Below are positions 289 to 58,597 of a DNA stretch of 64,000 nt, one piece after another (the first letter of the stretch is position 1; each line of letters opens with the position of its first letter). The notes below the pieces were generated by a model that did no database searches, was not told the DNA's origin, and saw nothing but the letters and a program-made list of their open reading frames with translations. This stretch comes from Lingula anatina (taxonomy: Eukaryota; Animalia; Brachiopoda): NCBI GenBank assembly GCA_051362555.1, contig JBPQGU010000016.1, forward strand, positions 2,914,001 through 2,978,000, in the 5' to 3' direction. A program made the translations under genes and the position numbers.

Positions 289-859
289 AACAAATACAAG
301 AATCAAAAAATACCAAAAATTAAGAAATCAAATTGAAAAAGATATTGTTTTTTTAAAACATAAAGAAGAAAATAAAGAACAAATTGAAAAATTAAAATCA
401 TTAATTGAAAAAATTGATAAAAAAATATTTCAAGAAAAATTATTAATTTCTGAAAATGCTTTTTTAAATCCAAAATCAATTTCAAGAATTGAAGAAGAAC
501 AAAAATTAGAAAAATTAAAATTAATTTTATCAAAAATAGAAAAACAAAATGAAAAAATTAAAGAAATAAAAATAACTAAAAATTCAAAAATTGATGATTA
601 TATTCCTAAATTAGAAAATGAAATTTTTGTATTAAATAATTTAAATTTAATAAAAATAAAAGAAAAAGAATTATTAAATAAATTTAAAAATATTCAAATT
701 GAAAAAGAAAAAATTAAAGATAAAGCAGAAAAAATTGATGATTTTTTAATAAAAGATTTTCAATTAGAAACAGCAGTACAAGAAAATAATTTTAGAATTG
801 AAGAACAAAAAAAAATTATTAAAAAATTAACTTTTACAAAAGAAAAAAAAACAAAATGA
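278..859 (+). CDS. Hypothetical Lys/Glu-rich coiled-coil protein
   Basis: 193-aa open frame overlapping the upstream stop; no recognisable motif. Confidence 0.6.
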   Translation: MTIKTNTRIKKYQKLRNQIEKDIVFLKHKEENKEQIEKLKSLIEKIDKKIFQEKLLISENAFLNPKSISRIEEEQKLEKLKLILSKIEKQNEKIKEIKITKNSKIDDYIPKLENEIFVLNNLNLIKIKEKELLNKFKNIQIEKEKIKDKAEKIDDFLIKDFQLETAVQENNFRIEEQKKIIKKLTFTKEKKTK

Positions 860-900
860 TTATTTTTTATAAATATTTTGTTTTTAATTTTACAAATAAC

Positions 901-2622
901 ATGCCTAATAATAATGTTTATAATAAAAAAATAATAATAACAATTGATGGACCATCTGGTGCTGGAAAAACAAGTTGTGGAATTTTATTATCTAAAAAAT
1001 TAAACTTTAAAATTTTAGATTCAGGAAAAATTTATAGATTATTTACTATATTTTTAAAAAATTTAAAAATTGATTGAAATAAATTAAATTTAGAAATTAA
1101 AAAAAATATAAAGAATTTTAATGTATTATTGAAAGATAATGTTTTTTATTTAAATAATAAAAAAATTGATGACAATAAATTAAATAATTTAAATATTGAA
1201 AAACTTACTACAAAAATAATAAATATAAAAAATGTAAGATACAAAATTAATCAAATTTGTAGAAACATTATTAAAGATAAAAATTTTATTTTAATTGGAA
1301 GAGATGCAGGAAGTGTAATTTTTCCAGAAGCAGATTTTAAATTTTTTTTAGATGCTTCACATAAAATAAGAGCAGAAAGAAAAAATAAATTATTAAATAA
1401 TCAAAATAAAACAATAAACTTTGATCAAGAATTAAAAGAAAGATTAAAAAAAGAAACAAAAGAAAATATTTTATTAAAAAGTTGAGATTCTTTTTATATA
1501 AAAAATGAAAATTTAACAATAGATGAAACAGTAAATAAAATATTAAAAATAATAAATCAATATTTAAAAAATATTTCATATAAAGTTGGAATAATTGGTG
1601 AAATAAATGTTGGTAAATCATCTTTATTTAATTTATTAGTAGGAAAAAAAGAAGTTATAGAAAGTAGTTTTGAAAATACAACTAGAGATTTTTTTGAAAA
1701 ACAAATAAAAATAAATGAAAAAGAAATTACACTAATTGATACTGGTGGAATGGAAAAAGAAAAAAATGATTTTTTACTTAATAAAATTTGAGAAAGAAAC
1801 TTAAATATTTTAAACAAATTCAATTTAATACTTTGAGTAACAAATTTTAAAACAGGTATTACAAAAAATACAAATTTAATAAATAAAAATTTAAAAAAAT
1901 ATAAAGACAAAATCATTTTAGTAATAAACAAAACTGAAAAAGAAGTTAAAGAAGAAAATATTAAAAATTGAAAAAAATTAGGAATTAAAAAAATGATATT
2001 TATTTCTGTAAAAAGAAAAATAAATTTTTTAAAATTAAAAAATGAAATTTCAAAAAATATTATTTCTATTGAAAAAAAAATAGATACAAAAAAATATATT
2101 GAAAAAAATGTTCTTATTTTAGGACAAACAAATAATGGAAAATCAACACTATTTAATCAATTATTAAAAACTGAAAAAGCAATTACAAGTTCAAAAGAAC
2201 ATACAACAACAAATATAATTAAAGGTTTTTTAGTTTATAACAATATAAAATTAAATTTCTTTGATACTGCAGGAATAAGAAAAAAAAGAACAAAAAAATC
2301 TACATTAGAAAAAAAATCATTTGAACAAATATTAAAAAAAACAGAAGATTTTGATGTTGCAATAATTGTTTTAGATACTACAAAACCATTTTTTTCACAA
2401 GATATAAGAATTGTTGGAATTATAAAAAAACTAAAAAAACCAATTATACTAGTTGGTAACAAAATAGATAAAAACACAAATGGAAAAAGAAAAATAGAAA
2501 GAGATATAAAAATATTTTTTAAATTATTAAAAGAAAAAACAATTGTATTAATCTCATCAAAAACTGGTGAAGGATGTCAAAAATTATTAAAAATATTAAC
2601 ACAAAAAGAATTTTATAAATAA
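901..2622 (+). CDS. cmk-der: Bifunctional cytidylate kinase / ribosome biogenesis GTPase Der (EngA) fusion, lacking the C-terminal KH-like domain
   Basis: One frame with TGA=Trp: Cmk motifs ITIDGPSGAGKTS, LDSGKIYR, GRDAGSVIFPEA; GD1 GEINVGKSS/DTGG/NKTE; GD2 GQTNNGKST/DTAG/NKID. Alternative start at 856. Confidence 0.88.
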
Positions 2623-10354: not shown

Positions 10355-11251
10355 ATGATAACTTTCAAAATAGAAAAAGAAAAAATTGAAAAATTAATAA
10401 AAAAATATTCTTTTAAAGAAAAAATAAATCAAAATTATTCTTTTTGATTTAAAAAATTTAATGATTTTACTGTTTCTATTTATAAAAGTAATAAAATTTT
10501 ATTTCAGGGAAATGAAGAAAAAATAAATAATTTTTTAAATGAGGAAAAAATAAATAATTTTTTAAATAAAGAAAAAATAAATAATTTTTTAAATAAAGAA
10601 AAAATAAATAATAAAGAAAAATATCAATTGTTTGAACATATTGGTTGTGATGAATCTGGTGTAGGAGATTATTTTGGTCCAATAATTTTAACTGTTTTTA
10701 AATATGATAATAATATTAAAAATTTAAAAATATTTGAAAAAGTAAAAGATTCAAAAAAAATAAATGTAAAAAAAATATTAGAAATAGGTAAAGAATTAAT
10801 AAAATTAAAAAATAATTTTAAAATATACAAAATTTCAAATGAAGAATTAAATGAAAGTGTATTAAATAAAAATATAAATTCAAAAGAAATTTTATTAATT
10901 AAATATATTAACTTATTAAAAAATAAAATATTTAAAAATAATATAGAAATTATAATTGATGGTTTTATAAATAAAAATACTTTTAATAAATATTGTTTAA
11001 AAAATAAAATATTTAAAATACCTAAAATTAAATTAATTCAAAAAGCAGAAGAAAAATATATTGCTGTAGCATCTGCTTCAATAATAAGCCGTTATTTCTT
11101 TTTAAAAGAAATTGAAAGTATTGAAAAAAAATTAAATATTAAAATTCTTTTAGGTGCAAACAAAAAAGTTAAAAAACAAATAAAAGAATTGTTAAAAAAT
11201 AAAGAAAAAAATGAAATTAAAAAATATATTAAATTATTCTTTAATATTTAA
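10355..11251 (+). CDS. rnhC: Ribonuclease HIII
   Basis: TBP-like N-terminus (TVSIYKSNKILFQG), catalytic IGCDESGVGDYFGP, KDSKK, IIDGF, KAEEKYIAVASASIISR. Confidence 0.92.
10511..10612 (+). repeat. In-frame 27-bp tandem repeat (~3.8 copies; N-E/K-EKINNFL) in the RNase HIII linker
   Basis: AAT(G/A)A(A/G)GAAAAAATAAATAATTTTTTA repeated at 10511, 10538, 10565 and partially at 10592. Confidence 0.9.
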
Positions 11252-16560: not shown

Positions 16561-17688
16561 TTACATAAATGGCGGAATGTCATCTTCATTATCATCATTT
16601 CCATCATCTTTATCTAATTTAGAAATATTTTCATTTTCTTTTTTATATAAATCATCTTCATTATTAAAAATATTATTTTTTTCTTTTTCTAATTCTTTTA
16701 TTTTAGTTTTTTTTGAAATATTTTCTAAATTAGCATATTTTATTTCATTTTCATCAAAATCAATTGCAATTAAAGAAATGATCATTTTTTCTTTTAATTC
16801 TTTATTCATTTTTTGACCAAACATTAAATCAACATCACCACCAGATTTTTCTTTTATAAAATCCATAGCTCTATTTATATCAATTAAATTTGTTTTATCT
16901 CCTGTTAAAACAAATATAATTGCTTTTTTTGATCCTTTAATAGATGCCTCTAAAAATTTGCAACTTGTTGCAAGTCTTGCAGCAGCAATTGCTTTACCAT
17001 TACCTTCAGCTATTCCATAACCAAAAAATGTATTTTTTGCATCTTTTAATAATCTTTTAACATCTGCAAAATCTAAATTAATATTTGCTGGTGAAATAAT
17101 AATATCAGTAAAAGTATCTACAACATTTTTAATATTTTCATTTGCAACATTAAATGCTTTATTTAATGGTATTTCTCCAAGTTCTTCTAATAATTTATCA
17201 TTTGAATAAATTATTAATGAATCTGTTTCTTTTTTTATTTCTTCAATACCTTTATTTGCATTTGCAGTTCTTAAACTACCTTCAAAAGTAAATGGTTTTG
17301 TAACTATACAAACAACTAAAATACCAATTTCTTTTGCAATTCTTGCAATTACTGGAGTTGCTCCTGTACCTGTACCACCACCTAAACCACAAATTAAAAA
17401 TAAAAGATCTGTACCTTCAAGATGTTTTTTAATATCTGAAATTGATTCTTCTGCTGCTTTTTTACCAGCAATCATATCTGAACCGGCACCTAAACCTTTT
17501 AATGTCTTTGGACCTAAAAATATTTTTTCTTCTGCACTACTATTTAAAAGAGCTTGTGAATCTGTATTTGCTGCAATAAAGTTAACACTTTCTAACTCAA
17601 AATCCATAATATGATTTACTGCATTACAACCAGCACCACCTACACCTAAAACAGTTATTTTTGGAATATAATATCTACTTGTATCCAT
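16561..17688 (-). CDS. ftsZ: Cell division protein FtsZ
   Basis: GVGGAGCNAV, GLGGGTGTG, NLDFAD, C-terminal DIPPF. Confidence 0.98.
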   Translation of the reverse strand: MDTSRYYIPKITVLGVGGAGCNAVNHIMDFELESVNFIAANTDSQALLNSSAEEKIFLGPKTLKGLGAGSDMIAGKKAAEESISDIKKHLEGTDLLFLICGLGGGTGTGATPVIARIAKEIGILVVCIVTKPFTFEGSLRTANANKGIEEIKKETDSLIIYSNDKLLEELGEIPLNKAFNVANENIKNVVDTFTDIIISPANINLDFADVKRLLKDAKNTFFGYGIAEGNGKAIAAARLATSCKFLEASIKGSKKAIIFVLTGDKTNLIDINRAMDFIKEKSGGDVDLMFGQKMNKELKEKMIISLIAIDFDENEIKYANLENISKKTKIKELEKEKNNIFNNEDDLYKKENENISKLDKDDGNDDNEDDIPPFM

Positions 17689-20170: not shown

Positions 20171-23146
20171 CTATCTTTTCAATAAACTTATTGTATTTAC
20201 TTTTTCTTTTTTTATTTTTATTTTGTTTTCTTCTTCTATTATTGGACCCATATGTTGTTTATTTTTTTTTCATAAATAAAATAATGTTCCCCTATGATTA
20301 TAAGCAATGTTTTTAACCCTTACACCATAAAAAACAAAAAGTTCTCAAAACAAATCTTGAACTTGTTTATAATTTTTTGCATTTTTAAAGCTTGTTAAAT
20401 AATGTGTTATTTTATTTTCAAACAAAGTATCTACATATTTTAATGTTTGTTTTAATGACAAAAACTTATTGAATCTTGCTTCATCAAATAATACATATTC
20501 TCTTAAAAATCAACCAAATCATTCAATTTCATTATGAGTTACAGAATTAATACATGAAATTGAAGAATACTCATTAAAATTTCCATATTTATCTATAAAA
20601 ACTTTATTATAATTAAATATTTCATTTTCTGGTTTTGATTTAATTTTTTCTCAAAAAATTTGTGTTGGTTTATTTCAAGATTTAATAACTTGTCTTTTAT
20701 ATCTAGATAATATTTGAGTTCATTTTTCTTTTTTTAATAATTTTGTTTTCAATTGTTTTATTTTTTCATTTAATTTAGATATTTGATTTTTTGTTTGTAA
20801 AATTTTAGAATCTAAGTTTGAAATTTCACTTGCTTTTTGAGAAATTTGAGCATTTAAATCTGAAATTTCAAAATCTAATATTTCTTTTTTTATTCTTAAA
20901 ATTTCTAATTCTTCATTTTTAATTTCTAATAAAGAATTAACTTCTTTTAATTTATTTTCTTTTTCTTGTATTTGAGTTTTTAAATTAGAAATTAATTTTT
21001 CATTTTTATCAATTTCATTTTGTTTTTTTATTAATTGATCTGATAATTTTTGTTTTTTAACTTTATTTGTTTCTAAATATTGTTTTATATTATTAAAATC
21101 TATGTTTTTTTTAGATAAAACTTCTTCTAATTCTTTAATATTATTATTTAAATTTAAAATTTGTTCTTGTTTTTGTAAATTTTGTTCTTTTAATTCTTTA
21201 ATATTATATGAAATTTCTTTAATTTGTTCAGTTTTTAATGTAATTTCATTTTGTAAGTTTGAAATTTGAAAATCTTTTTTTAAAATTAATGTATTTTTTC
21301 TCTTAATGTCAGATTCTAAATTTGAAATTTCTGTTTTTATTTGTGATTTTTTATTAATTAAATTAGAAATTTTTATTAAATTTTCTTTAATAATATTTTT
21401 ATTTTCTTTAATTTGATTATTTTTAGAAATTATATTTCTTGCTAATTTACAATCAAAAATTTCTTTTTTTGAAATTTCATTCAATAAATTTTCTTTTTGA
21501 ATTTGTTTTTCAATGATTTTTTTATCTAAAACATCTTTTCTTTCTTTTAAATTATTAAATTCATAATTTAAAATAAAGATTTTTTGTGTTTTTTCTTCTA
21601 ATTGAGATTTTAAATCATCAATTGAATTTTTTAAATCTTGTTTTTCTAAATTTAATTTGTCTAAATCAGAAATTTGTTTTTCAATTTTTTCTAGTTTTTT
21701 TTGTTTTGTTAATAATTCTTTATTTAGCTTTTGTAATTTTTCTTTTTGTTTTGAGTATTGTTTTTTATATTTTTCTGATTCTTTATTTAATTCTATTTCT
21801 TTTTTTAATAATTTTAATATTTCTTTATTTAATATAAAAGCATTTATTTCTTTTTCAATTTGTGTTTTAAAACTATTTTCAAATTTTAATTGATTTTTCA
21901 AAAATTCAATTGCTTCACCACAAATTTTTATTTTTTCATCAATATCAATATTTGAATTTGTTGATGTTAAAAACATATAGTTAACTATATTTAAATCATG
22001 ATCTTTTAAAAATATTTTTGTAAACTTTAAAATTTCTGAATGTGTAACTGTTTTTGTTAATAAAAATATTTTGTTTAATTTAAAAATCTCTTCTTTTTTT
22101 AAATTTAAAGATTTTATAATTTCTTTAATTTTTATCATTGAATTATCAAAAAACATATTTTTAAATTTTTGATTTATTATTCTTTGTTTTATTTTTTTTT
22201 TATTTAAAAAAATAATATTTTTAGAAATTTTATATAGTCCTTGTAAAATATTTTGTTTAAAATATTCTTTATTTGTTGTAAGTTTTTTGTTATCTTCTAT
22301 AATTTTTGTTAATAATTCTGTTTTATATTTTTTTTCTCAAACCTTTTTTACATAGTCAACAAAATTAGAAATTTCTTTTTTTGTTTTTAATACATCAAAT
22401 GTGTTGTGTTTAATTATTTTGGCAATTGTAAGAATAAATTGTGTTACTGCAAATACTGAAGCAACTTTAGGAATCGGGTTCAAAGATAAAACACTTAAAC
22501 TTGTATCAATATGATGATCAATTTGTTTATTTCCAAACAAGCTTGTTATATCCAAAACTTTTTTATTAAATTGTTCAATAATTAACTCTAATGATGAAGT
22601 TTTTTCTCTAAGTGAATCTTTTAATTTTGAAATTTCAGATTTATTATCAGATATTGTTTTACAATTTTCTATTGATTGTTTTCATAAATTAAAATTTTTT
22701 TCAATTTCCAAAAAATAAAATTTAAATTCATTTTGATTTTGTAAAATCTTTAAATTGTCTTTTTGATTTTTTAAATCTTTTTCTTTTTTATTTCATTTAT
22801 TTTCTATTATTAATAACTTTTTTTTATATAAATCTAATTGTTTTTGATATTTTATTTCTATTTCATTAATTTTTTTATTACATTTTTTATTAATTTCTTT
22901 TATTAAATTGAATAAAATATCATTAATTTTTTGTATTTTTTCAGATTCAGATAAATTTTCATTATAAGTAATATTTTTAATATCCTCAAAACTTGTATTA
23001 TTCATAATATTAAAATTAGAAAAAAATGAACTTTTATTTTTTTATTTTTTTTTATTGAAAAAATATATTTCTTTTAATATATTATTTTTAAATAATAAAG
23101 AAAAAGAAAAAATACAAAATAATTTTTTTATTTTTAACTTTTTCAT
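20171..23146 (-). CDS. Large secreted coiled-coil protein with variable C-terminal domain, copy B2 (~990 codons; in-frame TAA at 23042-23044)
   Basis: MKKLKIKKLFCIFSFSLLF signal-like start; supplied ORFs at 22793, 22337 and 20720 are one frame via TGA; C-terminus VIKSWNKPTQIFW...LFWELFVFYGVRVKNIAY; TAG at 20171. Confidence 0.8.
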
Positions 23147-23190
23147 TAAAATTATTTTTTTATATTTTACAATAAAATATATATCATCAA

Positions 23191-23220
23191 AAAAATTATA
23201 TAACTAAAATCTTATAAAAA
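23191..23220 (-). promoter_or_regulatory. Putative promoter of B2 (TATAAT -10 box), identical to 30861-30890
   Basis: 30-bp perfect duplicate (TTTTTATAAGATTTTAGTTATATAATTTTT on - strand) ~45 bp upstream of the ATG. Confidence 0.6.
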
Positions 23221-23412
23221 AATAAGGTTTAGAATTCTATTTTAAAAAACAAAAATTTATTATTTATAAATTAATTTAAAAATTTTTCTATTCTTCTATA
23301 AATTATTATAGTTTTTTTCTTTTTTTTATACATTTAATATAATGTGTTGTATTAATTATTAACAACAAAAATATTGAATAATTTAAAATATTTTATAAAA
23401 AAATATAATTTT

Positions 23413-24038
23413 TTATAATCATTCTTTAATATAATTGTTTGGAATTTCTTTATGTCCATTTTTTGCAAATCATTCTTTATATAATTCATCGTAAATCACT
23501 CTTCTAAAATTTCTCTTTTCATTTTTTTCTTCAACACAAGCAACAATACTTAAAACATTAATATCAGGTCATTTTTTTTGTAATATTTTTTCATATTTTT
23601 TTGAAATTCTTAAATCTGCTTCGCTTGGGAATAAATCAAAAATAGAATCATCATCAAGGTGGTTGTGAATTAATAAAACTTTTTCTTTGTTTTCATTTTC
23701 AAGTTTTTCTATTATTTCATTAATATTAGAGGCATATACTCGTGTTGGGTGTTTGTCTGTTCTACAAATTATTTTTTTTAAAGAAAAATCTTTATTAACA
23801 ACAAAAACCATATAATATTCATATTTTTTATGTTCTAATTTTTTAAATTCATTTAATATAAATTCTTTTTCTTTTTGTGTTAAAATTTTTTCTGTTGATA
23901 AAATTCTAGGTTTAATTGGTGGTTTTGGTGGTTTTGGTGGTTCATATATTGAAAAAAAAGACCAAAACCAATTATTAGAATTGAAATTAAAATAAAAAGT
24001 TTGTATTTATGTTTTTTTATTTTATTAAAAATTTTCAT
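23413..24038 (-). CDS. Membrane-anchored JAB/MPN+ (JAMM) domain protein, copy J2 (1-nt frameshift in A8 at 23952-23959)
   Basis: MKIFNKIKKHKYKLFILISILIIGFG TM helix, PPKPPKPP linker, KYEYYMVF, LLIHNHLDDDSIFDLFPSEADLR (HxH..PSxxD). Confidence 0.78.
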
Positions 24039-24094
24039 ATAAATCCATTTTATATTTTTTTATTTTATAAAAATTTTCATATATATTTAACATT

Positions 24095-25145
24095 TTAACA
24101 AGTTCTGTAACAATTAGGTTCTCAATAATTTCTATCTCATCTATTTTTTCTTAAACCATAAAACAAATAACCTTTTTCTTTTCAAGCAATGTTTTTAACT
24201 CTTACACCATAACCAGCAAAAAGTTTTCAAAATAATTCTTTTACTTTTTTAAAATTTGATGCATTTCTAAAATCATTTATAAATTCATTTATTTTAATTT
24301 CATAATCTGAATTTACATATTTTAATACTTGTTTTAATGATAAAAATTTATTTCAATTTCCTTCATCAACTAATATATATTCATATAAAAAGTTTTCAAA
24401 TGGTTCAGATTCTTCAAAAGCAGAAGAATGAGAGTTATAAAATAATCCACTCCGAGATATTCAAAAATTTGAATATCTAAAACTTTCTGAATCTGAATAT
24501 CCATCTATTATTTTTCAAAACTCTTTTGTTGGTATATTTCAAGATTTAATAACTGCGTTTTTGTGTCTTAATAATATTTCGTTTAATTCTTCTACTTTTT
24601 TAAATTCATCTTGTAATTTTCCAATTTCAGAATTTAAGTTTGAAATTTGAGTTTCTTTTTGAGAGATTTAAGTGTTTAATGTATCAATTTCTGTTTGTTT
24701 TTGAGAAATTTGAGTGTTTAAGTCTGAAATTTCTTTTAATTTTTTATTATACAAATAATTTAAATAAGCTAACATCATATTTTTTTCTCTCAATTCTGTA
24801 TTAACTTCATTTAATCTATTTGTTTTTTCCTTTATTTGATTTATTAAATAAGAAATAACTATTTCTTTTAAATTAATTTCTTGTTGTTTTTGTTCTAATT
24901 GAACTGACAATTCTTGTTTTTGAACTTTCATTTGATCTAATTCTTGTTTTATATTGTTAAAATCTATGTTTTTTGAGATAAAGATTGTTCTAATTCTTCA
25001 ATATTATTATTTAAACTTAAAATTTGTTCTTGTTTTTCTTTATTTTCTGTTTCTAATTCTTTAATATTATCTAAAATTTGTTTAATTGTTTCAGTTTTAG
25101 AATTAATATCAGAATTTGGATTTATAATTTCAGTTTCTTTTTTTA
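24095..25145 (-). pseudogene. Start-less orphan cassette B3: last coiled-coil repeats plus a third variant of the C-terminal domain
   Basis: Near-identical DNA to B1 repeats (MKVQKQELSVQLEQKQQEINLKEIVISYLINQI); frameshift at T6 24969-24974; CAA>TAA at 24668; C-terminus VIKSWNIPTKEFW...LFWKLFAGYGVRVKNIAW; no ATG or signal peptide at its 5' end. Confidence 0.8.
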
Positions 25146-25180
25146 ATTAATATTTTTTTTATTTAAAAAATTATAAATTT

Positions 25181-25803
25181 CTATAATCATTGTTTAATAT
25201 TATGTTTTGGATTTATTCTAGATTTTTTTACTCATTCTTCTCATAATTCATCATACAATACTCTTCTAAAATTTCTCTTTTCATTTTTTTCTTCAACACA
25301 AACAACAATACTTAAAACATTAATATCAGGTCATTTTTTTTGTAATATTTTTTCATGTTTTTCTGCAATTCTCATATCTGCAATGCTAGGAACTAAATCA
25401 AAATTAGAAGGAGGATGATTATGAATTAATAAAACTTTTTCTCTGTTTTCGTTTTCAAGTTTTTCTATTTTTTCATAAATATTAGATAAAACTTGTGTTG
25501 GGTGTTTGTCTGTTTTTTCATATATTTTTTTTAAAGAAAAGTCTTTGTTAACAACAAAAACCATATCATATTCATATTTTTTATGTTCTACTTTTTTAAA
25601 TTCATTTAAAATAAATTCTTTTTCTTTTTTTGTTAAATATTTTTCTGTTGATAAAATTCTAGGTTTAATTATTATTGGATTTGATGTTTTTGATTCTTTT
25701 GGAAATTCATATATTGTAAAAAAAATACCAAAACCAATTATTAAAGTTGAAATTAAAATAAAAAGTTTGTATTTATGTTTTTTATTTTATTAAAAATTTT
25801 CAT
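25181..25803 (-). CDS. Membrane-anchored JAB/MPN+ (JAMM) domain protein, copy J1 (1-nt frameshift in T6 at 25778-25783)
   Basis: Paralog of J2; TM KLFILISTLIIGFGIFFTIY; KYEYDMVF; LLIHNHPPSNFDLVPSIADMR. Confidence 0.78.
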
Positions 25804-25929
25804 ATAAATCCATTTTATATTTTTCATTATTTTTTAAAAAAAATTTTCATATATATTTAAAGTTTCAACATCACATATAACAACAGAATAATGATTGATA
25901 AAAATGACAAACAATTAATTTAATTAAAA

Positions 25930-28900
25930 TTATCTGTAATAAAATCTGAAAAGAATTGAATTATTATTTAAATTTTTATGTATTTTAACTCTTACACCAT
26001 AACTTGAAAAAAGTTCTCAAAATAATTCTTTTACTTTCTTAAAATTTGATGCATTTCAAAAATTATTTTCAAAATCTTCAATTTTAGACTCATAATTTGA
26101 AACAGTATGACGTATTCGATTTCTTAATGAGAAAAAATTATCATTGTTGTCAATTGAATATCTTTCTTTATAAAAAGAAGAATCAGTTTCTAAAACAAAC
26201 TTAAACAAAAAACGTGAAAATGATTGATATTTTTCATAACGTCATCCACCAACGTCTGATTCATTTTTTCCATTTGGTTTAGAACTATAAAAATTTCCAT
26301 ATTCATCAACAACACAAGTTCGAATATTAAAACTCCCTGAATTTGGAATTTTTTTTCAAAATTCTTGTGTTGGTGTGTTTCAAGACGCAATAACTGCATC
26401 TTTGTATCTTTTTAATATTACATTTAATTCTTCTACTTTTTGAAATTCATCTTGTAATTTTCTTGTTTTATTGTTTAATCTATCAATTTCTGATTGTTTT
26501 TGTGAAATTTGAGTATTTAGGTCTGAAATTTCAGTTTCTTTTTGAGAGATTAATGTGTTTAAGTTTGAAATTTCTTTTATTTTGTTGTTTTTTAAAACAA
26601 TTAAATAACGTAACATTATATTTTTTTCTCTTAATTCTTTATTAACTTCATTTAATCTAATTGTTTTTTGTCTTATTTGATTTATTAAATAAGAAATAAC
26701 TATTTCTTTTAAATTAATTTCTTGTTGTTTTTGTTCTAATTGAACTGATAATTCTTGTTTTTGAACTTTCATTTCATCTAATTCTTCTTTTATATTATTA
26801 AAATCTGTGTTTTTTTGAGATAAAGATTGTTCTAAATCTTCAATATTATCATTTAAACTTGAAATTTCAGTTTGTTTTATTGTATTTTGTGTTTCTAATT
26901 CTTTAATATCATCTGAAATTTGTTTAATTGTTTCAATTTTTGAGTTAATATCAGAATTTAGATTTGTAATTTCAGTTTCTTTTTGAGATATTAATGTGTT
27001 TTTTGTGTTAATTTTTGTTTGTAAGTTTGAAATTTCAGTTTCTTTTTGAGAGATTAATGTGTTTTTTGTGTTAATTTTTGTTTGTAATGTTTGTTTTTGT
27101 GTATTTAAAGTTTGTAACTCTTCATTTTTAGTTTGTAATAAACCATTAACTTCATTTAATCTGTTTTCTTTTTCTTGTATTTGAGTTCTTAAATCAGAAA
27201 TTAATGCTTCTTTTGTGTTAATTTCTGTTTGTTTTTGTTCTAATTGAACTGACAATTCTTGTTTTTGAACTTTCATTTGATCTAATTCTTGTTTTATATT
27301 GTTAAAATCTATGTTTTTTTGAGATAAAGATTGTTCTAAATCTTTAATATTATTATTTAAATTTAAAATTTGTGTTTGTTTTTTTGTATTTTGTTCTACT
27401 ATTTCTTTAATGTTATCTGAAATTTGTTTAATTGTTTCAATTTTTGAATTGATTTCAGAGTTTAATCTTTGAATTATAGTTTCTTTTTGTAAGATTAATG
27501 TGTTTTTTGTGTTAATTTCTGTTTGTAAGTTTGAAATTTCAGATTCTTTTTGTGTAATTAATTTTTCTTTATTATTAATAGTTTCAGTTTTTAAGTTAAT
27601 TTCAGTATTTAAATCTGAGATTTGAGTGTTTAATGTATTAATTTCTGTTTCTTTTTGAGAGATTTGAGTGTTTTTTGTGTTAATTTCATTTTCTAAGTTT
27701 GTAATTTCAGTTTCTTTTTGAGAGATTTGAGTGTTTAAGTCATTTAATAAAGTTGTTTTTTCTACAATTAAATTATTAATTCTATTTAATTCTGCTGTTT
27801 TTAACTCAATTTGTAAATCAATCTTTTCAATTTCAATTTCAACATCTCTTATTTCATTTTCTTTATTTCTAATATTTACTTCATCTAAATTAATTTGAGA
27901 TTTTAAGTTCTCTAAATTTTGTCTTTGTGTTTCTAACAAAGAAAGATCATTATTAGATTTTGTTTGTTTTTGTTCTAATTCTAAAATTTGAGATTCTAAG
28001 TTTTCTTGTGTTGTTAAATCAGAATTTAATTCTTCTTTAAATTCATTTAATGAATTTAAAAAGTTTGTTTTTAAAGTATTTAAATCTGTTTTTAGTTTTT
28101 GTAAACTTGAAATTTGAAAATTTAAATTATTCTTTTGAGTGTTTAAGTCTGAAAGTTCAGAGTTTAAATTAGTTTTTTGAGTATTTAAGTCTGAAAGTTC
28201 AGAGTTTAAATTAGTTTTTTGAGTATTTAAGTCTGAAAGTTCAGAGTTTAAATCTGTAATTTGAGAGTTTAGATTTAAAAGTTCTAATTCTTTTTGTTTT
28301 TTTTGATTGTCTAAATCTGTAATTTGAGAGTTTAGATTTAAAATTTGAGTGTTTAATGTATTAATTTCAGATTCTTTTTGAGATATTAATGTATTTTTTG
28401 TGTTAATTTCATTTTGTAATGTTTGTTTTTGTGAAATTAATTCTTGTTTTTGTGTTTCTAAATTTGAAATTTCAGATTCTTTTTGTTTTTTTTGATTATT
28501 TAAATTAGAAATTTCTAATTCCTTTTCTTTAATAACATTTTCATTTTCTTTAATTTCATTATTTTGAAAAATTATATTTCTTGCTAATTCACCATCAAGA
28601 GTTTGTTTTTGTGAAATTTCATTTAATAAAGTTTCTTTTTCAAGTTTTTTTTCAATAATTTCTTCATCTAAATTATATTTTTGTTCTACTAAATCATTAA
28701 ATTCATCATTTACAATTTTAAGGTTTTGTTCTTCTAATTGAATTTGAGATTTTAAATAATTAATTTCTGATTCTAATTCTAAAATTTGAGATTCTAAATT
28801 TGTAATTTGAGTTTCTAATTGTTGTTTTCTTACATTTAAATATGAGATTTGAGTGTTTAAATCTGAAATTTGATTGTTTAATGTATAAATTTCTGTTTGT

Positions 28901-30817
28901 TTTTGAGAGATTTGAGTGTTTTTTGTGTTAATTTCTGTTTGTAATTTTTGTTTTTGTGTAATTAATTCTTGTTTTTGTGTTTCTAAATTTGAAATTTCAG
29001 ATTCTGTTTGTTCTTTTTGGTTATTTAAACAAGAAATTTCTGTTTGTTTTTCTTTAATAATATTTTCATTTTCTTTAATGTGATCTTGTTGAGAAATTAT
29101 ATTTCTTGCTAAAACACCATCAAGAGTTTGTTTTTGAGAGATTTCATTTAATAAATCTTCTTTTTCAATTTTTTTTCATTAATTTCTTCATCTAAATTAT
29201 CTTTTTGTTCTGTTAAAGTATCAAATTCATCATTTAAAATTTTAAGATTTTCTTTTTCTTTTTTTAATTCATCTTTTAATTCTTGAATAGAATTTTCTAA
29301 TTCTTGTTTTTCTAAATTTAATTTTTCAATTTCTTTTGTTAAATCATCAATTTGTTTTTCAAGTATTTCTTTTACTTTTGTTTTTTTATTTATTTCTTCA
29401 TTTAATATTTTTAACTCTAACTCTTTTTTTTGTTTTTCTTTTTTATAATCTTCTAATTTCTTATTTAACTCTATTTCCTGTTTTAATAATCTTAAAATTT
29501 GTTTTGTTAATTTAAAAGCATTTATTTCTTTTTCAATTTCTGCTTTTCTAATATTATTTTCATATTTTAGTTGTTTTGTTAAAAATTCAATTGCTTTATT
29601 ACAAATTTTTACTTTTTCATCAATATCAATATTTGAATTTGTTGATGTTAAAAATAAATAATTTACTACATTTAATTTATGATCTTTTAAAAATATTTTT
29701 GTAAATTCTAAAATATCAGAATATTTAACTGTTTTTGTTAATAAAAATATTTTGTTAAATTTAAAGATTTCATCTTTTGTTAAATTTAAAAATTTTATAA
29801 TTTTTTTAATTTTGATAATTGAATTATTAAAAAACATATTTTTTAATTTTAGATTTATTACTCTTTTTTTTATTTTTTTATTATTTAAAAAAATAATGTT
29901 TTGAGAAATTTTATATAATTCTTTTAAAATATTTTGTTTAAAATGTTTGGTATCTGTTTTAAGTTTTTTATTTTCTTCTTCTAATTTTTTTATTAATTCT
30001 TCTTTTTGATGTTTTTCTCAAATTTTTTTTAAATCATCTACAAAATTAGAAATTAATTTTTGTATTGCTGGAACATCTTCTTGATTATGTTTACCCACTT
30101 TATAAAATGAAATAGTCATTTGTGATATTCCGGCTGCAACATTAACACCTGGAATTAAAGATGCAATATTTAAAGTTATATCAATGGCATAATCAGTATT
30201 TAGATCTACAGACATACTTAATGTTTTAAAAATTTTGTTCTTTAAATCATCTTTAAGTTTTGTTCATGATGGAGTTGTTTCAAGTTCGGATTTTAACTTT
30301 AAAATTTCAGCATTATTATTTAATATTATTTGTAAATTTTTTTTTGATTTTTTTCATAAATTAAAATTTTTTTCAATTTCAAAAAAAGAAAATTCAAATT
30401 CTTTTTGATTTTTAAAAATATCTAAATTTTCTGTTTTATCCTTTAATTCTTTTTCTTTTTTATTTCATTTTTTTCTATTATTAATAATTTTTCTTTATAT
30501 AAATCTAATTCTTTTTGATGTTTTATTTTTAATTCATTATTTTTTTTATTTCATTTTTTACAAATTTCTTTTTCTAAATTTAATAAAATATTATTAATTT
30601 GTTGTTTTTGTTCAGATTCAGATAAAACTCTACTATAAACAACTTTTTTAATACTTTCAAACCCTTTATTATTTAAAGCATCAAAATTAGAAAAAACTGA
30701 ATTTGCTTTGTCTTTATTTTTATTATTTAATAAATATATTTCTTTTAATATTTTAGTATTTGCAAATATAGATAATGAAAAAAATACAAAAAGAGTTATG
30801 ATTTTTAACTTTTTCAT
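25930..30817 (-). CDS. Giant secreted coiled-coil repeat protein with variable C-terminal domain, copy B1 (~1630 codons; frameshifts at 30468-30474 and 29169-29176)
   Basis: MKKLKIITLFVFFSLSIFA signal peptide; hydrophobic segment IASLIPGVNVAAGISQMTISFY; continuous open frame ~29170 to 25930 of heptad repeats; C-terminus VIASWNTPTQEFW...LFWELFSSYGVRVK. Confidence 0.82.
26960..27085 (-). repeat. 63-bp tandem duplication (QTKINTKNTLISQKETEI(S/T)NL) in B1
   Basis: Two near-identical 21-codon units visible in the supplied 26380..27939 translation. Confidence 0.8.
28133..28252 (-). repeat. 42-bp tandem repeat x~3 (LNSELSDLNTQKTN) in B1
   Basis: TTTTGAGT(G/A)TTTAAGTCTGAAAGTTCAGAGTTTAAATTAGTT repeated on the + strand. 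Confidence 0.88.
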
Positions 30818-30860: not shown

Positions 30861-30890
30861 AAAAATTATATAACTAAAATCTTATAAAAA
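30861..30890 (-). promoter_or_regulatory. Putative promoter of B1 (TATAAT -10 box), identical to 23191-23220
   Basis: Same 30-mer at the same distance from the paralogous ATG. Confidence 0.6.
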
Positions 30891-31499
30891 CATAGGAATT
30901 GGTATTCCATATAAAAAAGCAAAAATCGTTGCAGATAAAATTATTTCTAATGACATATTTGAAACATCTATTTCTAAATTATTTGTTAATTTATAATCTT
31001 TTTTAAAATTATTTCTAAATAAATTAATATCAAAGTTTTTATATATTTCTGTAAATTCTTGTATCTTATTTTTATATTTGTTTTTTCAATCAATAAATTT
31101 ATTTTTATATATTTTTTTATTTATATCTTCTGTTTTAAAAATAAAATTATAATCCAACTTATATTCTTTAAAAATTTCTAAATTTTCAGAAGTAAAAATA
31201 TTTGGAATATTTTCTTGTGTTAAAAAAGAATTAAAATTATTTTTTAATTTAAGTTTATATGTATCCTGTTTAGTTTTTGCTTGTATTTTTTCTAATTCTT
31301 TATCTATTTCAATTTTATTTTGATCTACATTTTTTTCATCTTTATTTTTTAATTTTTTATGATGTGATTTTGAAATATCAATTAAAAGTTTAATAAAAAA
31401 TGAACTAGTTACAATTAATATACAAATAATAATTATTAAAAATCAATGATTTAAAAAAAATTTATTAATTTTTTTAAAAAAATTAAAAAAATATTTCAT
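30882..31499 (-). CDS. Hypothetical membrane-anchored protein heading the accessory locus (gene A, 205 aa)
   Basis: Open with TGA=Trp; N-terminal TM (WFLIIICILIVTSSFFI) and hydrophobic C-terminus (IILSATIFAFLYGIPIPMFL); missed by the ORF track. Confidence 0.65.
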
Positions 31500-56930: not shown

Positions 56931-58496
56931 TTAATTAAAAAGACTAATAATTTTTTCTTCATTAATATCTTTTTTTTCAATATTTTGAAATTTTTTGTTT
57001 TTTAATAAAACAATTTTATTACAAAAATTGTTTAAAACATTAATATCATGTGTAATTAATATACATGCTGTTCTAGTTTGTTTAAAATATTGTTTTAATT
57101 TTTTTAAAGTTTCAAATTTAGTCTTAATATCTAAATTACTTGTAAATTCATCTAAAAATAATATATCTGGTTTATCAATAATTGATATTAATAAAGATAA
57201 TCTTTGTTTTTCACCGCCAGATAAAACATATGTTCTTTTATTTAAAATTGATTCAATATTAAATATCTTCTTAATACTATTAAAATAATTTACATCTATA
57301 TTTTTATCAATACAACAATCTAAAACATCTTTAACTTTTAATAATTCAGGATATTTTGAGGTTTGAAACAAAAAATTCATTTTTTCAGCTTGTGAATATT
57401 TATAATCAAAATTATAATGTATTGTTCCAGAATCAGCATTTCCTAATCCAGACAATATTTTAAAAAATGTTGTTTTACCTGTTCCATTTTCACCAATAAT
57501 TCCCAAAACATCTTTTTTATATATTGAAATGTTTGCGTTTTTAAAAATTATTTGTTTTTTAAATTTTTTATTTAAATTTTTTACCTCTATCAATTTGTTT
57601 GAATTATGATCTATTTTTTTTATTCTTTTAAAATTATTAAAAAACATACTTTTTGAATTAAATTCTAACTCTATTTTTTTAAATAATGTAATAAAAAAAA
57701 TTAATATTATTGATAAAAATGGGAATAAAAAATTATATAATTTTTGATCTTTATCAAAAATTATTTTTGTTTCTGTTCTGTTTCCTTGTGCACTAAAACC
57801 AATAAAATCTTTATCAAAATCAAAAATACCACCTTTTTCTAAATTTATAAATTCATTACCCTTTGAAGTTAATGCATTAGATAATAAATTATTTAAATAT
57901 GTAAATGGATTCATTAAAGATAGTGTTTTCATAATTTCATTTTTATTTATCATTTCAATTGGTATTAATGCTCCAGATAAAAATGAACCAAATAAATATA
58001 TAAAATTACTCAAAAGAACTAAAGCTAAAAAATTATTAATATATAAAAACAAAAATTGTCCAAAAAATAAACAAAATAAATTAACCAAAATTAAAGAAAA
58101 TAAAAACTCAAAAATATCAATAGAAGAAAAAAATGAATCAATAAACTTTTGTTCTTTTATATTTATTAAAAATATAATAGCTATTGCAAAAAAATATAAA
58201 AAAATATTAACTACAAAAAAATAAAATAATGGTAAAAAATTTTTAATTTTACTTTTTTTAATTAAAAAAAATTTTTTAATAAAAGTCATTTTTTTTATTC
58301 TTAAAATCAACATTGGCATTAAAAGAATTGAATTTGAAATAATCATTAAAAATGGTAAATTTATTGATTGTGTTAAAAAACCTTTATATGAAAATCCAAA
58401 CATAATTATATACAACAAATTTAATATAATACTTAAAATACCAAATCCGTTTTTAAAAAATAATTTATTCAATGTTTTAAATAATAAAAATTTCAT
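56931..58496 (-). CDS. Fused ABC-2-type permease + ATP-binding domain exporter
   Basis: ~6 TM helices (FLSGALIPI..LMNPFTY) followed by GENGTGKTT, LSGGE, ILFLDE, LITHD in one ORF. Confidence 0.88.
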   Translation of the reverse strand: MKFLLFKTLNKLFFKNGFGILSIILNLLYIIMFGFSYKGFLTQSINLPFLMIISNSILLMPMLILRIKKMTFIKKFFLIKKSKIKNFLPLFYFFVVNIFLYFFAIAIIFLINIKEQKFIDSFFSSIDIFEFLFSLILVNLFCLFFGQFLFLYINNFLALVLLSNFIYLFGSFLSGALIPIEMINKNEIMKTLSLMNPFTYLNNLLSNALTSKGNEFINLEKGGIFDFDKDFIGFSAQGNRTETKIIFDKDQKLYNFLFPFLSIILIFFITLFKKIELEFNSKSMFFNNFKRIKKIDHNSNKLIEVKNLNKKFKKQIIFKNANISIYKKDVLGIIGENGTGKTTFFKILSGLGNADSGTIHYNFDYKYSQAEKMNFLFQTSKYPELLKVKDVLDCCIDKNIDVNYFNSIKKIFNIESILNKRTYVLSGGEKQRLSLLISIIDKPDILFLDEFTSNLDIKTKFETLKKLKQYFKQTRTACILITHDINVLNNFCNKIVLLKNKKFQNIEKKDINEEKIISLFN

Positions 58497-58597
58497 TCAA
58501 TTAATTTTGTTTAATATTTTTATATATTGTATTTTTATTTTATTATTTTTTTAATATATTTTTAAATTCAAATTATTAATAAATATTTAATACTTTT

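Follow-up and report, generated by a model that had tools for sequence, protein, structure and literature searches.

Variants of a C-terminal tip domain in a recombining but broken array of likely surface-protein genes from a Mollicute-like contig of a Lingula anatina assembly

What is the domain of about 150 amino acids that ends three neighbouring genes in a 64,000-nucleotide stretch of a Lingula anatina assembly (GCA_051362555.1, contig JBPQGU010000016.1, positions 2,914,001 to 2,978,000 of the forward strand), and how did its copies come to differ so unevenly along their length? This stretch, hereafter the window, has a GC content of 14-24%, contains a Mollicute-typical set of housekeeping genes, and gives full-length reading frames solely under NCBI table 4, in which TGA encodes tryptophan. 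Judged from its genes, the source appears to be a deep-branching, unsampled, wall-less and very AT-rich Mollicute lineage, with a best FtsZ match of 62%. The domain, referred to here as the tip, belongs to a five-gene array (A, X1, B3, X2 and B2), all on the minus strand, between pheT (31617) and rpmF (19926). With moderate confidence, we consider the tip to be the compact C-terminal head of coiled-coil fibres that are likely exposed on the surface of a host-associated Mollicute, a head that is likely host-binding and was likely reshuffled by recombination in a tandem array that is now off or decaying. Overall, the locus is best described as a recombining but broken surface-protein array, whose mosaicism is likely, whose diversifying selection is unproven, and whose function is inferred.

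Genes A (25930..30817) and B2 (20171..23146) are paralogues over their whole length, each comprising a signal-like start, an N-domain of ~330 residues with a hydrophobic hairpin, a stalk, and a tip. Gene A extends over ~1,630 codons across three frames, from a predicted signal peptide through the N-domain (29472..30467) and a repeat-bearing coiled-coil stalk to tip B1. Gene B2 consists of a weak signal-peptide-like start (23146) and a 944-codon open frame from 23005 that encodes the N-domain, stalk, and tip. The signal peptides were called by hydropathy alone; the start of gene A is basic and then hydrophobic (KD19 1.91), and that of gene B2 is weaker (1.18). The stalk exhibited a sharp 3.50-residue period over 915 residues together with internal repeats, and no membrane helix was found within stalk or tip. 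B3 (24095..25146) is a relic with a missing 5' end, which retains ~190 stalk codons and a tip. Genes X1 (25181..25803) and X2 (23413..24038) are paralogues, 78% identical across the JAB part, in which an N-terminal membrane helix precedes a JAB/MPN-like domain (E..HNH..S-x2-D). B3 and X2 together repeat, in tandem, a ~1.85-kb unit made up of the 3' end of gene A and X1; this direct duplication of stalk end, tip, spacer, and JAB gene occupies 23391..27004, with its copies at 27004-25157 and 25160-23391. Nucleotide identity between the copies was 86% in the stalk, 83% in box1, 69% in core and mid (81 gap columns), 89% in box2, 56% in the tail, and 88-92% in the JAB gene. The gene order is thereby full gene A, partner X1, the 5'-less tip B3, and partner X2, with gene B2 having no JAB gene downstream.

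The N-domains of A and B2 were 60% identical, with per-block identity ranging from 11/38 to 33/40 in blocks of 40 columns. The hydrophobic hairpin (30000-30260 and 22330-22560, minus strand) was the least conserved part (11/38 identical) and represents a second variable region, distant from the tip. Matches of the gene A hairpin to PHROG 18242 'protease' (E 0.0003) and to YtvI (E 0.002) were judged to be composition matches, and the B2 hairpin had no match.

An earlier note, made from the letters and their open reading frames, had described three tip variants at 25930-26420 (B1), 24095-24560 (B3), and 20171-20700 (B2); all three are present, on the minus strand, under table 4, and no fourth copy was found in the window. 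The motifs that it quoted were confirmed, with box1 reading VIASWNTPTQEFW, VIKSWNIPTKEFW, or VIKSWNKPTQIFW and box2 reading NAxN(F/Y)KxVxxLFWxLFxxYGVRVK. Pairwise blastp among the tips gave 39-49% identity (E 1e-26 to 1e-42). For comparison, each tip was divided into five segments, whose borders were set by us after the data had been seen: B1 (25933..26397) into box1 (26350-26397), core (26209-26349), mid (26107-26208), helix+box2 (25984-26106), and tail (25933-25983); B3 (24146..24556) into box1 (24509-24556), core (24389-24508), mid (24317-24388), helix+box2 (24194-24316), and tail (24146-24193); and B2 (20264..20692) into box1 (20645-20692), core (20507-20644), mid (20435-20506), helix+box2 (20312-20434), and tail (20264-20311). 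Identities for the pairs B1-B3, B1-B2, and B3-B2, respectively, were 12/16, 11/16, and 10/16 in box1; 11/37, 15/41, and 13/37 in the core; 6/24, 8/24, and 17/24 in the mid segment; 29/41, 21/41, and 21/41 in helix+box2; and 2/16, 3/16, and 8/16 in the tail. The distinct tail of B1 was also considered as a frameshift product, which was ruled out, as the length difference is in frame. The core, which the earlier note had called hypervariable and poorly alignable, is indeed divergent (~30-37% identical, with indels), but remains alignable through G-x-F and F-xx-F-L. The JAB genes, the ~1.85-kb duplication, and the breakage of all five genes had not featured in that note.

An AlphaFold model of the B2 tip, built from the three sequences, had a predicted local distance difference test score (pLDDT) of 79.8 and a predicted template modelling score of 0.80. 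In the modelled tip, box1 and box2 form the first and last helices (residues 2-22 and 112-125), and the variable core forms loops, a beta-hairpin, and a short helix. Since conserved helices with variable loops are ordinary domain anatomy, and since the N-domain is equally patchy, the variable core is nothing special by itself. No relative of the tip was detected in the collections searched: a word-based protein search with B2 residues 765-925 returned 49 candidates, none of which scored (lengths of 519-1652 only); tip pattern searches gave 126 matches in genome contigs and 41 in viral contigs, none confirmed (because W occurs in these patterns, sequences that use TGA codons could have escaped them); and a TGR-tolerant DNA pattern gave nothing in metagenome contigs, as did the plasmid search. 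No family was matched in Pfam, PHROGs, NCBIfam, or PADLOC, and the 11 rows obtained against PDB sequences were all one 26-residue superoxide dismutase match (E>=0.077). A profile search against 1.84 billion representative proteins gave two matches, both dismissed as scores summed across the repeats in Big_13 and PPR-Smr proteins that are unrelated to the tip. Foldseek with the tip model found nothing in PDB and BFVD at E<=0.001, and a VIA fold search reached a best Z of 3.3, with none of 48,161 at 5 or above, which does not prove a new fold. The tip is a real, previously undescribed domain. Because it lacks a detected relative or solved-fold match yet was modelled with fair confidence, it can be put forward as a candidate for a new host-interaction domain.

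The mosaic ancestry proposed in the earlier note had been based on the sharing of NASNFKKVKELFW between B3 and B1, and of NKFLSLKQxLKYV and GVRVKNIA between B3 and B2; these shared motifs are present as described. Tip sites that group B3 with B2 and those that group B1 with B3 formed only 10 runs in 39 sites (runs test by permutation, p=0.0015), with counts of 11 vs 0 in the mid segment, 1 vs 9 in helix+box2, and 6 vs 0 in the tail. This block pattern was unchanged under four other alignment settings, and, at each of nine settings, at most 0.13% of 1,500 replicates simulated under clonal descent with shared rate patches, fast and slow, matched the run pattern. Fixed-window branch-length tests over stalk and tip together were significant in 6/6 settings. 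Thus, divergence in the recombination tests was not uniform along the domain, and incongruent segments were found.

The stalk of B3 provided the most direct evidence of exchange. It is identical to stalk repeat A_r1 of gene A (27095..27520, minus strand) for 91 nucleotides (24884-24974 against 27229-27319), and then to repeat A_r2 (26590..27015, minus strand) for 76 nucleotides (24832-24907 against 26673-26748), with pairwise permutation p values of 0.0002 and 0.009 for six pairs; A_r1 and A_r2 differ from each other at sites within both copy tracts. In run X4, one of four sequencing runs whose contigs were compared with the array, one contig carried the opposite combination at 11 diagnostic sites (3 A_r2 and 8 A_r1 alleles) among the rows listed. 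The exact copy tracts show that the array has recombined within its stalk sequences. In view of this direct evidence, the likelier reading of the tip blocks is that B1 and B3 exchanged a segment over box2 long ago. The mosaic ancestry that the earlier note had proposed is supported by the incongruent tip blocks and the exact stalk copy tracts, but conversion within the tip is, with three sequences, inseparable from bursts of change in B1 only. Run X4 appeared to represent a divergent strain or relative over 24623-25142 (55-80x depth), with stalk repeats ~90% alike in a different arrangement and a 21-nucleotide indel (one heptad) at 24642.

Diversifying selection, the other process that the earlier note had invoked, was unsupported: omega was below 1 where estimable, the synonymous divergence (dS) was saturated in the core, and model M2a was not better than M1a (p=1.0 with F61 and 0.13 with F3x4). 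With codon frequencies modelled, X1-X2 gave dS ~0.9 and omega 0.15, the boxes gave omega 0.08-0.17, and dS in the core was unbounded; third positions are 95% A/T. Raw pN (0.44) and pS (0.39) are similar in the core; this was considered as a sign of positive selection but rejected with the codon models, the similarity being produced artificially by saturated synonymous sites at 18% GC. These sequences neither establish nor exclude diversifying selection.

All five array genes are broken, with seven breaks in 10.2 kb containing 130 A/T runs of at least 6, whereas 30 housekeeping genes picked by us in the window, which together span 37.7 kb and include 461 such runs, each lie in one frame with no breaks. 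The reading frame of gene A is broken in two A-runs, at 30468-30474 and 29169-29176; X1 has one frame break in the run at 25778-25783, right after its start; X2 has one in the run at 23952-23959, past the membrane helix; B3 has one in the run at 24969-24974 and a stop at 24665-24667; and in B2 a stop at 23042-23044, between two A-runs, severs the signal-like start. Six of the seven breaks are at A/T runs, with run lengths of 6-9 nucleotides, and run-associated breaks lie near the 5' ends of X1, X2, B2, and A, gene A having two and B2 a stop. Poly-A length changes are known to break the frame of Vaa and to switch it, according to the consulted part of PMC524362. In Blochmannia, homopolymer frameshifts have been interpreted as early decay or as rescued by transcriptional slippage (PMC3017870); the poly-A/T frame breaks are alike in the two cases, but those described here have runs of 6-9 nucleotides, are confined to one array, and are accompanied by two stop codons.

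Contigs from other sequencing runs were examined for the same region. Seven DNA runs from four studies contain all or part of the stretch, three of them with at least half its words, and the contigs of four (runs X1-X4) were compared over 24095-26700. No RNA run was listed as containing the stretch; since poly-A RNA libraries are among the runs that carry the same organism label, the host is presumably a eukaryote. Tip B1 was identical in contigs of run X1 (possibly the source), run X2 (same study), and run X3 (another study, ten years earlier), and B3 was identical over 24121-24537 in run X2. The B3 stop was bridged by contigs of run X2, and the junction between gene X1 and B3 by those of runs X1 and X2. 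The A/T run in B3 was covered by single-copy contigs in three runs, yet with 24 letters on one side (bar 31), and the run in gene X1 was ambiguous. The identity of B1 across three runs argues, weakly because contigs drop rare variants, against fast and ongoing tip switching. No chimeric tip joint, of the kind that the earlier note had proposed to look for in population reads, was present in the contigs of the four runs, which cannot show absence. Run X4 gave no coverage of the tips or of gene X1 at 82% likeness, and this carries no evidential weight.

How might such an array have worked? An intact gene may have encoded an exported, membrane-tethered coiled-coil fibre that held the head far from the cell, ~1,000 stalk residues giving a reach of roughly 150 nm, and there the head would bind to the host. 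Adjacent copies could then have recombined by a RecA-type mechanism that started at the repeats of the stalk and at the conserved boxes, altering stalk length and head segments; recA is intact within the window. B3 and X2 may have served as a silent cassette that donated sequence to the 3' end of gene A. In its architecture the array resembles the Vmp/Lmp/Vaa proteins of M. hominis (PMC524362), with which it has in common a predicted signal peptide, a coiled coil over most of the length, internal repeats, a non-coiled divergent C-terminal region, chimeric alleles, and frame breaks at poly-A runs; the likeness is one of architecture, and the tip searches were empty. With M. synoviae vlhA and Anaplasma msp2 (PMC2825196 and PMC4534519) it shares a partial copy beside a full gene, conserved flanks with a variable centre, and segmental exchange. 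Unlike those systems, the window holds one relic and two full-length genes, none intact, with no recent tip tract; B1 is identical in three runs from two studies, and no evidence of ongoing switching was found. With homology undemonstrated and no conversion observed to be under way, we did not assign the array to the Vmp/Vaa or vlhA/msp2 systems.

Several observations weigh against a host-binding, reshuffled fibre head. Within the tip, fixed-window tests were significant in only five of eight settings (p 0.0002-0.009; the other three at 0.09-0.31), scanning the nucleotide sequence for the B3-B2 vs B1-B3 contrast yielded p=0.11, and the 20 informative synonymous-only sites do not follow the tip blocks. 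The longest exact tract common to any two tips is 21 nucleotides, with no recent conversion tract, so any tip exchange must be old. No homologue assigns the head a function, and the signal-like stretch of B2 is weak. Compared with Vmp/Vaa, tandem paralogues and a 5'-less cassette are found here, and nothing equivalent to the JAB partner is described in the consulted part of PMC524362. The two breaks in gene A and the two stops favour decay over a single on/off switch; with all five genes broken and no sign of ongoing tip variation, the case is weakened.

A rival explanation is plain tandem duplication, after which the copies drifted and underwent copy-specific bursts of change, mostly in B1; the stalk conversion would be incidental, the array dying, and the relic no donor. 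A long B1 branch in the mid and tail segments fits three sequences as well as conversion does, the B3-B2 mid identity of 76% at the nucleotide level is far from a recent tract, the patchiness of the N-domain is equally strong, and the five genes carry seven breaks. However, this explanation requires ~0.66 B1 substitutions per site in one segment, compared with 0.28 between B3 and B2, and requires it twice (mid and tail), while gene A-B3 conversion is demonstrated 300 nucleotides away. We regard it as unlikely.

At the N-terminus of each JAB-like protein, X1 and X2, a basic stretch is followed by a single membrane helix, so that the C-terminal JAB-like part is predicted to face outward, and both have the E, HNH, S, and D metal-site residues. 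The spacer from HxH to S is 9 and 11 residues in X1 and X2, compared with 7 in RadC. Weak matches to RadC-like JAB domains were obtained in Pfam, NCBIfam, and PHROGs; the PF04002 scores of 18.9 and 19.5 bits were under the 22.1 cut-off, and NF000642 gave E 0.002-0.004. A model of the JAB partner had a pLDDT of 43 with a strand and helix order compatible with JAB, and Foldseek found nothing significant. A homologue search gave 1,750 candidates for X1/X2, none of which scored, and searches of plasmids, phages, and metagenomes were empty. Thus, X1 and X2 share the E, HxH, S, and D residues with the RadC-like JAB/MPN family (PF04002; PMC3239186), but differ from it in having an N-terminal membrane helix in place of the helix-hairpin-helix (HhH) and a longer HxH-S loop. 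The partner protein might be involved in processing the fibre or might target the host.

Alternatively, the array could be a polymorphic-toxin-like cassette, in which the fibre delivers a toxic tip, as the earlier note had also suggested, the JAB protein is the cognate antidote or processing enzyme, and the orphan pair B3+X2 could be swapped in for that gene's own 3' end in A. Its order of full gene, partner, 5'-less tip, and partner matches the toxin-immunity layout of PMC3482391, in which a long exported protein, a variable C-terminal tip, a small downstream partner, and a duplicated tip-partner pair are likewise found. The differences between X1 and X2 are clustered (40/165 columns, p=0.006), by eye near predicted active-site loops, and the hydrophobic hairpin of the N-domain is also compatible. 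However, the tips are homologous variants (39-49%) and not toxin domains of unrelated origin; neither a toxin family nor a toxin fold was matched (best Z 3.3), and X1/X2 matched no immunity family; gene B2 has no partner; and X1 and X2 are 78% identical while the adjacent tips are 41% identical. Moreover, the partner retains catalytic-type residues and a membrane anchor, whereas JAB is a toxin in the part of PMC3482391 consulted, where the Tox-JAB rows have the same residue set as X1/X2, earlier prokaryotic JAB domains are termed intracellular, and 'mycoplasma' is absent. Given the common ancestry of the tips and the failure to detect a toxin fold, the array was not placed among polymorphic toxin systems, and we consider this explanation improbable. 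Even more doubtful is an elaborate version in which a ~150-nm fibre with a new-fold effector head and a matched, membrane-anchored extracellular JAB protein that cleaves or neutralises it form a two-gene exchangeable cassette, pairs recombine into the full gene, and homopolymer slippage switches the array. Many Mollicutes bear long variable fibres; the unusual feature of this array is a tip duplicated with a membrane-anchored JAB-like gene in toxin-immunity-like order. Our literature search located no report of a comparable Mollicute locus, and the papers listed for polymorphic toxins in Mollicutes concerned Spiroplasma toxins. If the pairing is functional, cassette-type tip exchange and extracellular JAB enzymes would be extended to Mollicutes.

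Finally, an assembly artefact, in which mis-joined repeats and homopolymer errors produced both the mosaic and the breaks, is very improbable and is largely refuted for B1, the X1-B3 junction, and B3: the region is repetitive, six of seven breaks are at A/T runs, those in A (two), X2, and B2 lie outside the contig comparison, and that in X1 is ambiguous, but tip B1 (three runs), tip B3 and its stop (run X2), and the junction (runs X1 and X2) were reproduced with 0-1 differences, and the housekeeping genes were free of breaks.

Beside the broken array and elsewhere in the window, several other features were noted. Immediately upstream of gene A, a 205-amino-acid protein with one N-terminal membrane helix and no significant family is encoded at 30882..31499 on the minus strand; it is a neighbour by position. 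Promoter-like sites were at chance level (127 vs 116+-12). The closest relative of FtsZ (16561-17688, minus strand) was 62% identical and the next, from a 'Mollicutes bacterium', 53%, among the best 8,000 candidates scored, and no GTDB relative was reached via FtsZ; genes that we read as ftsA-like and sepF-like accompany ftsZ. A single open frame at 56931-58550 (minus strand) combines a multi-pass membrane part with an ABC ATPase. The cmk and der (engA) genes are fused in one frame at 823-2622 (plus strand), where the Der part covers 343/432 profile positions and its C-terminal portion is seemingly missing. An RNase HIII-like gene at 10355-11251 (plus strand) contains a linker with ~3 copies of the short tandem repeat EKINNFLN.

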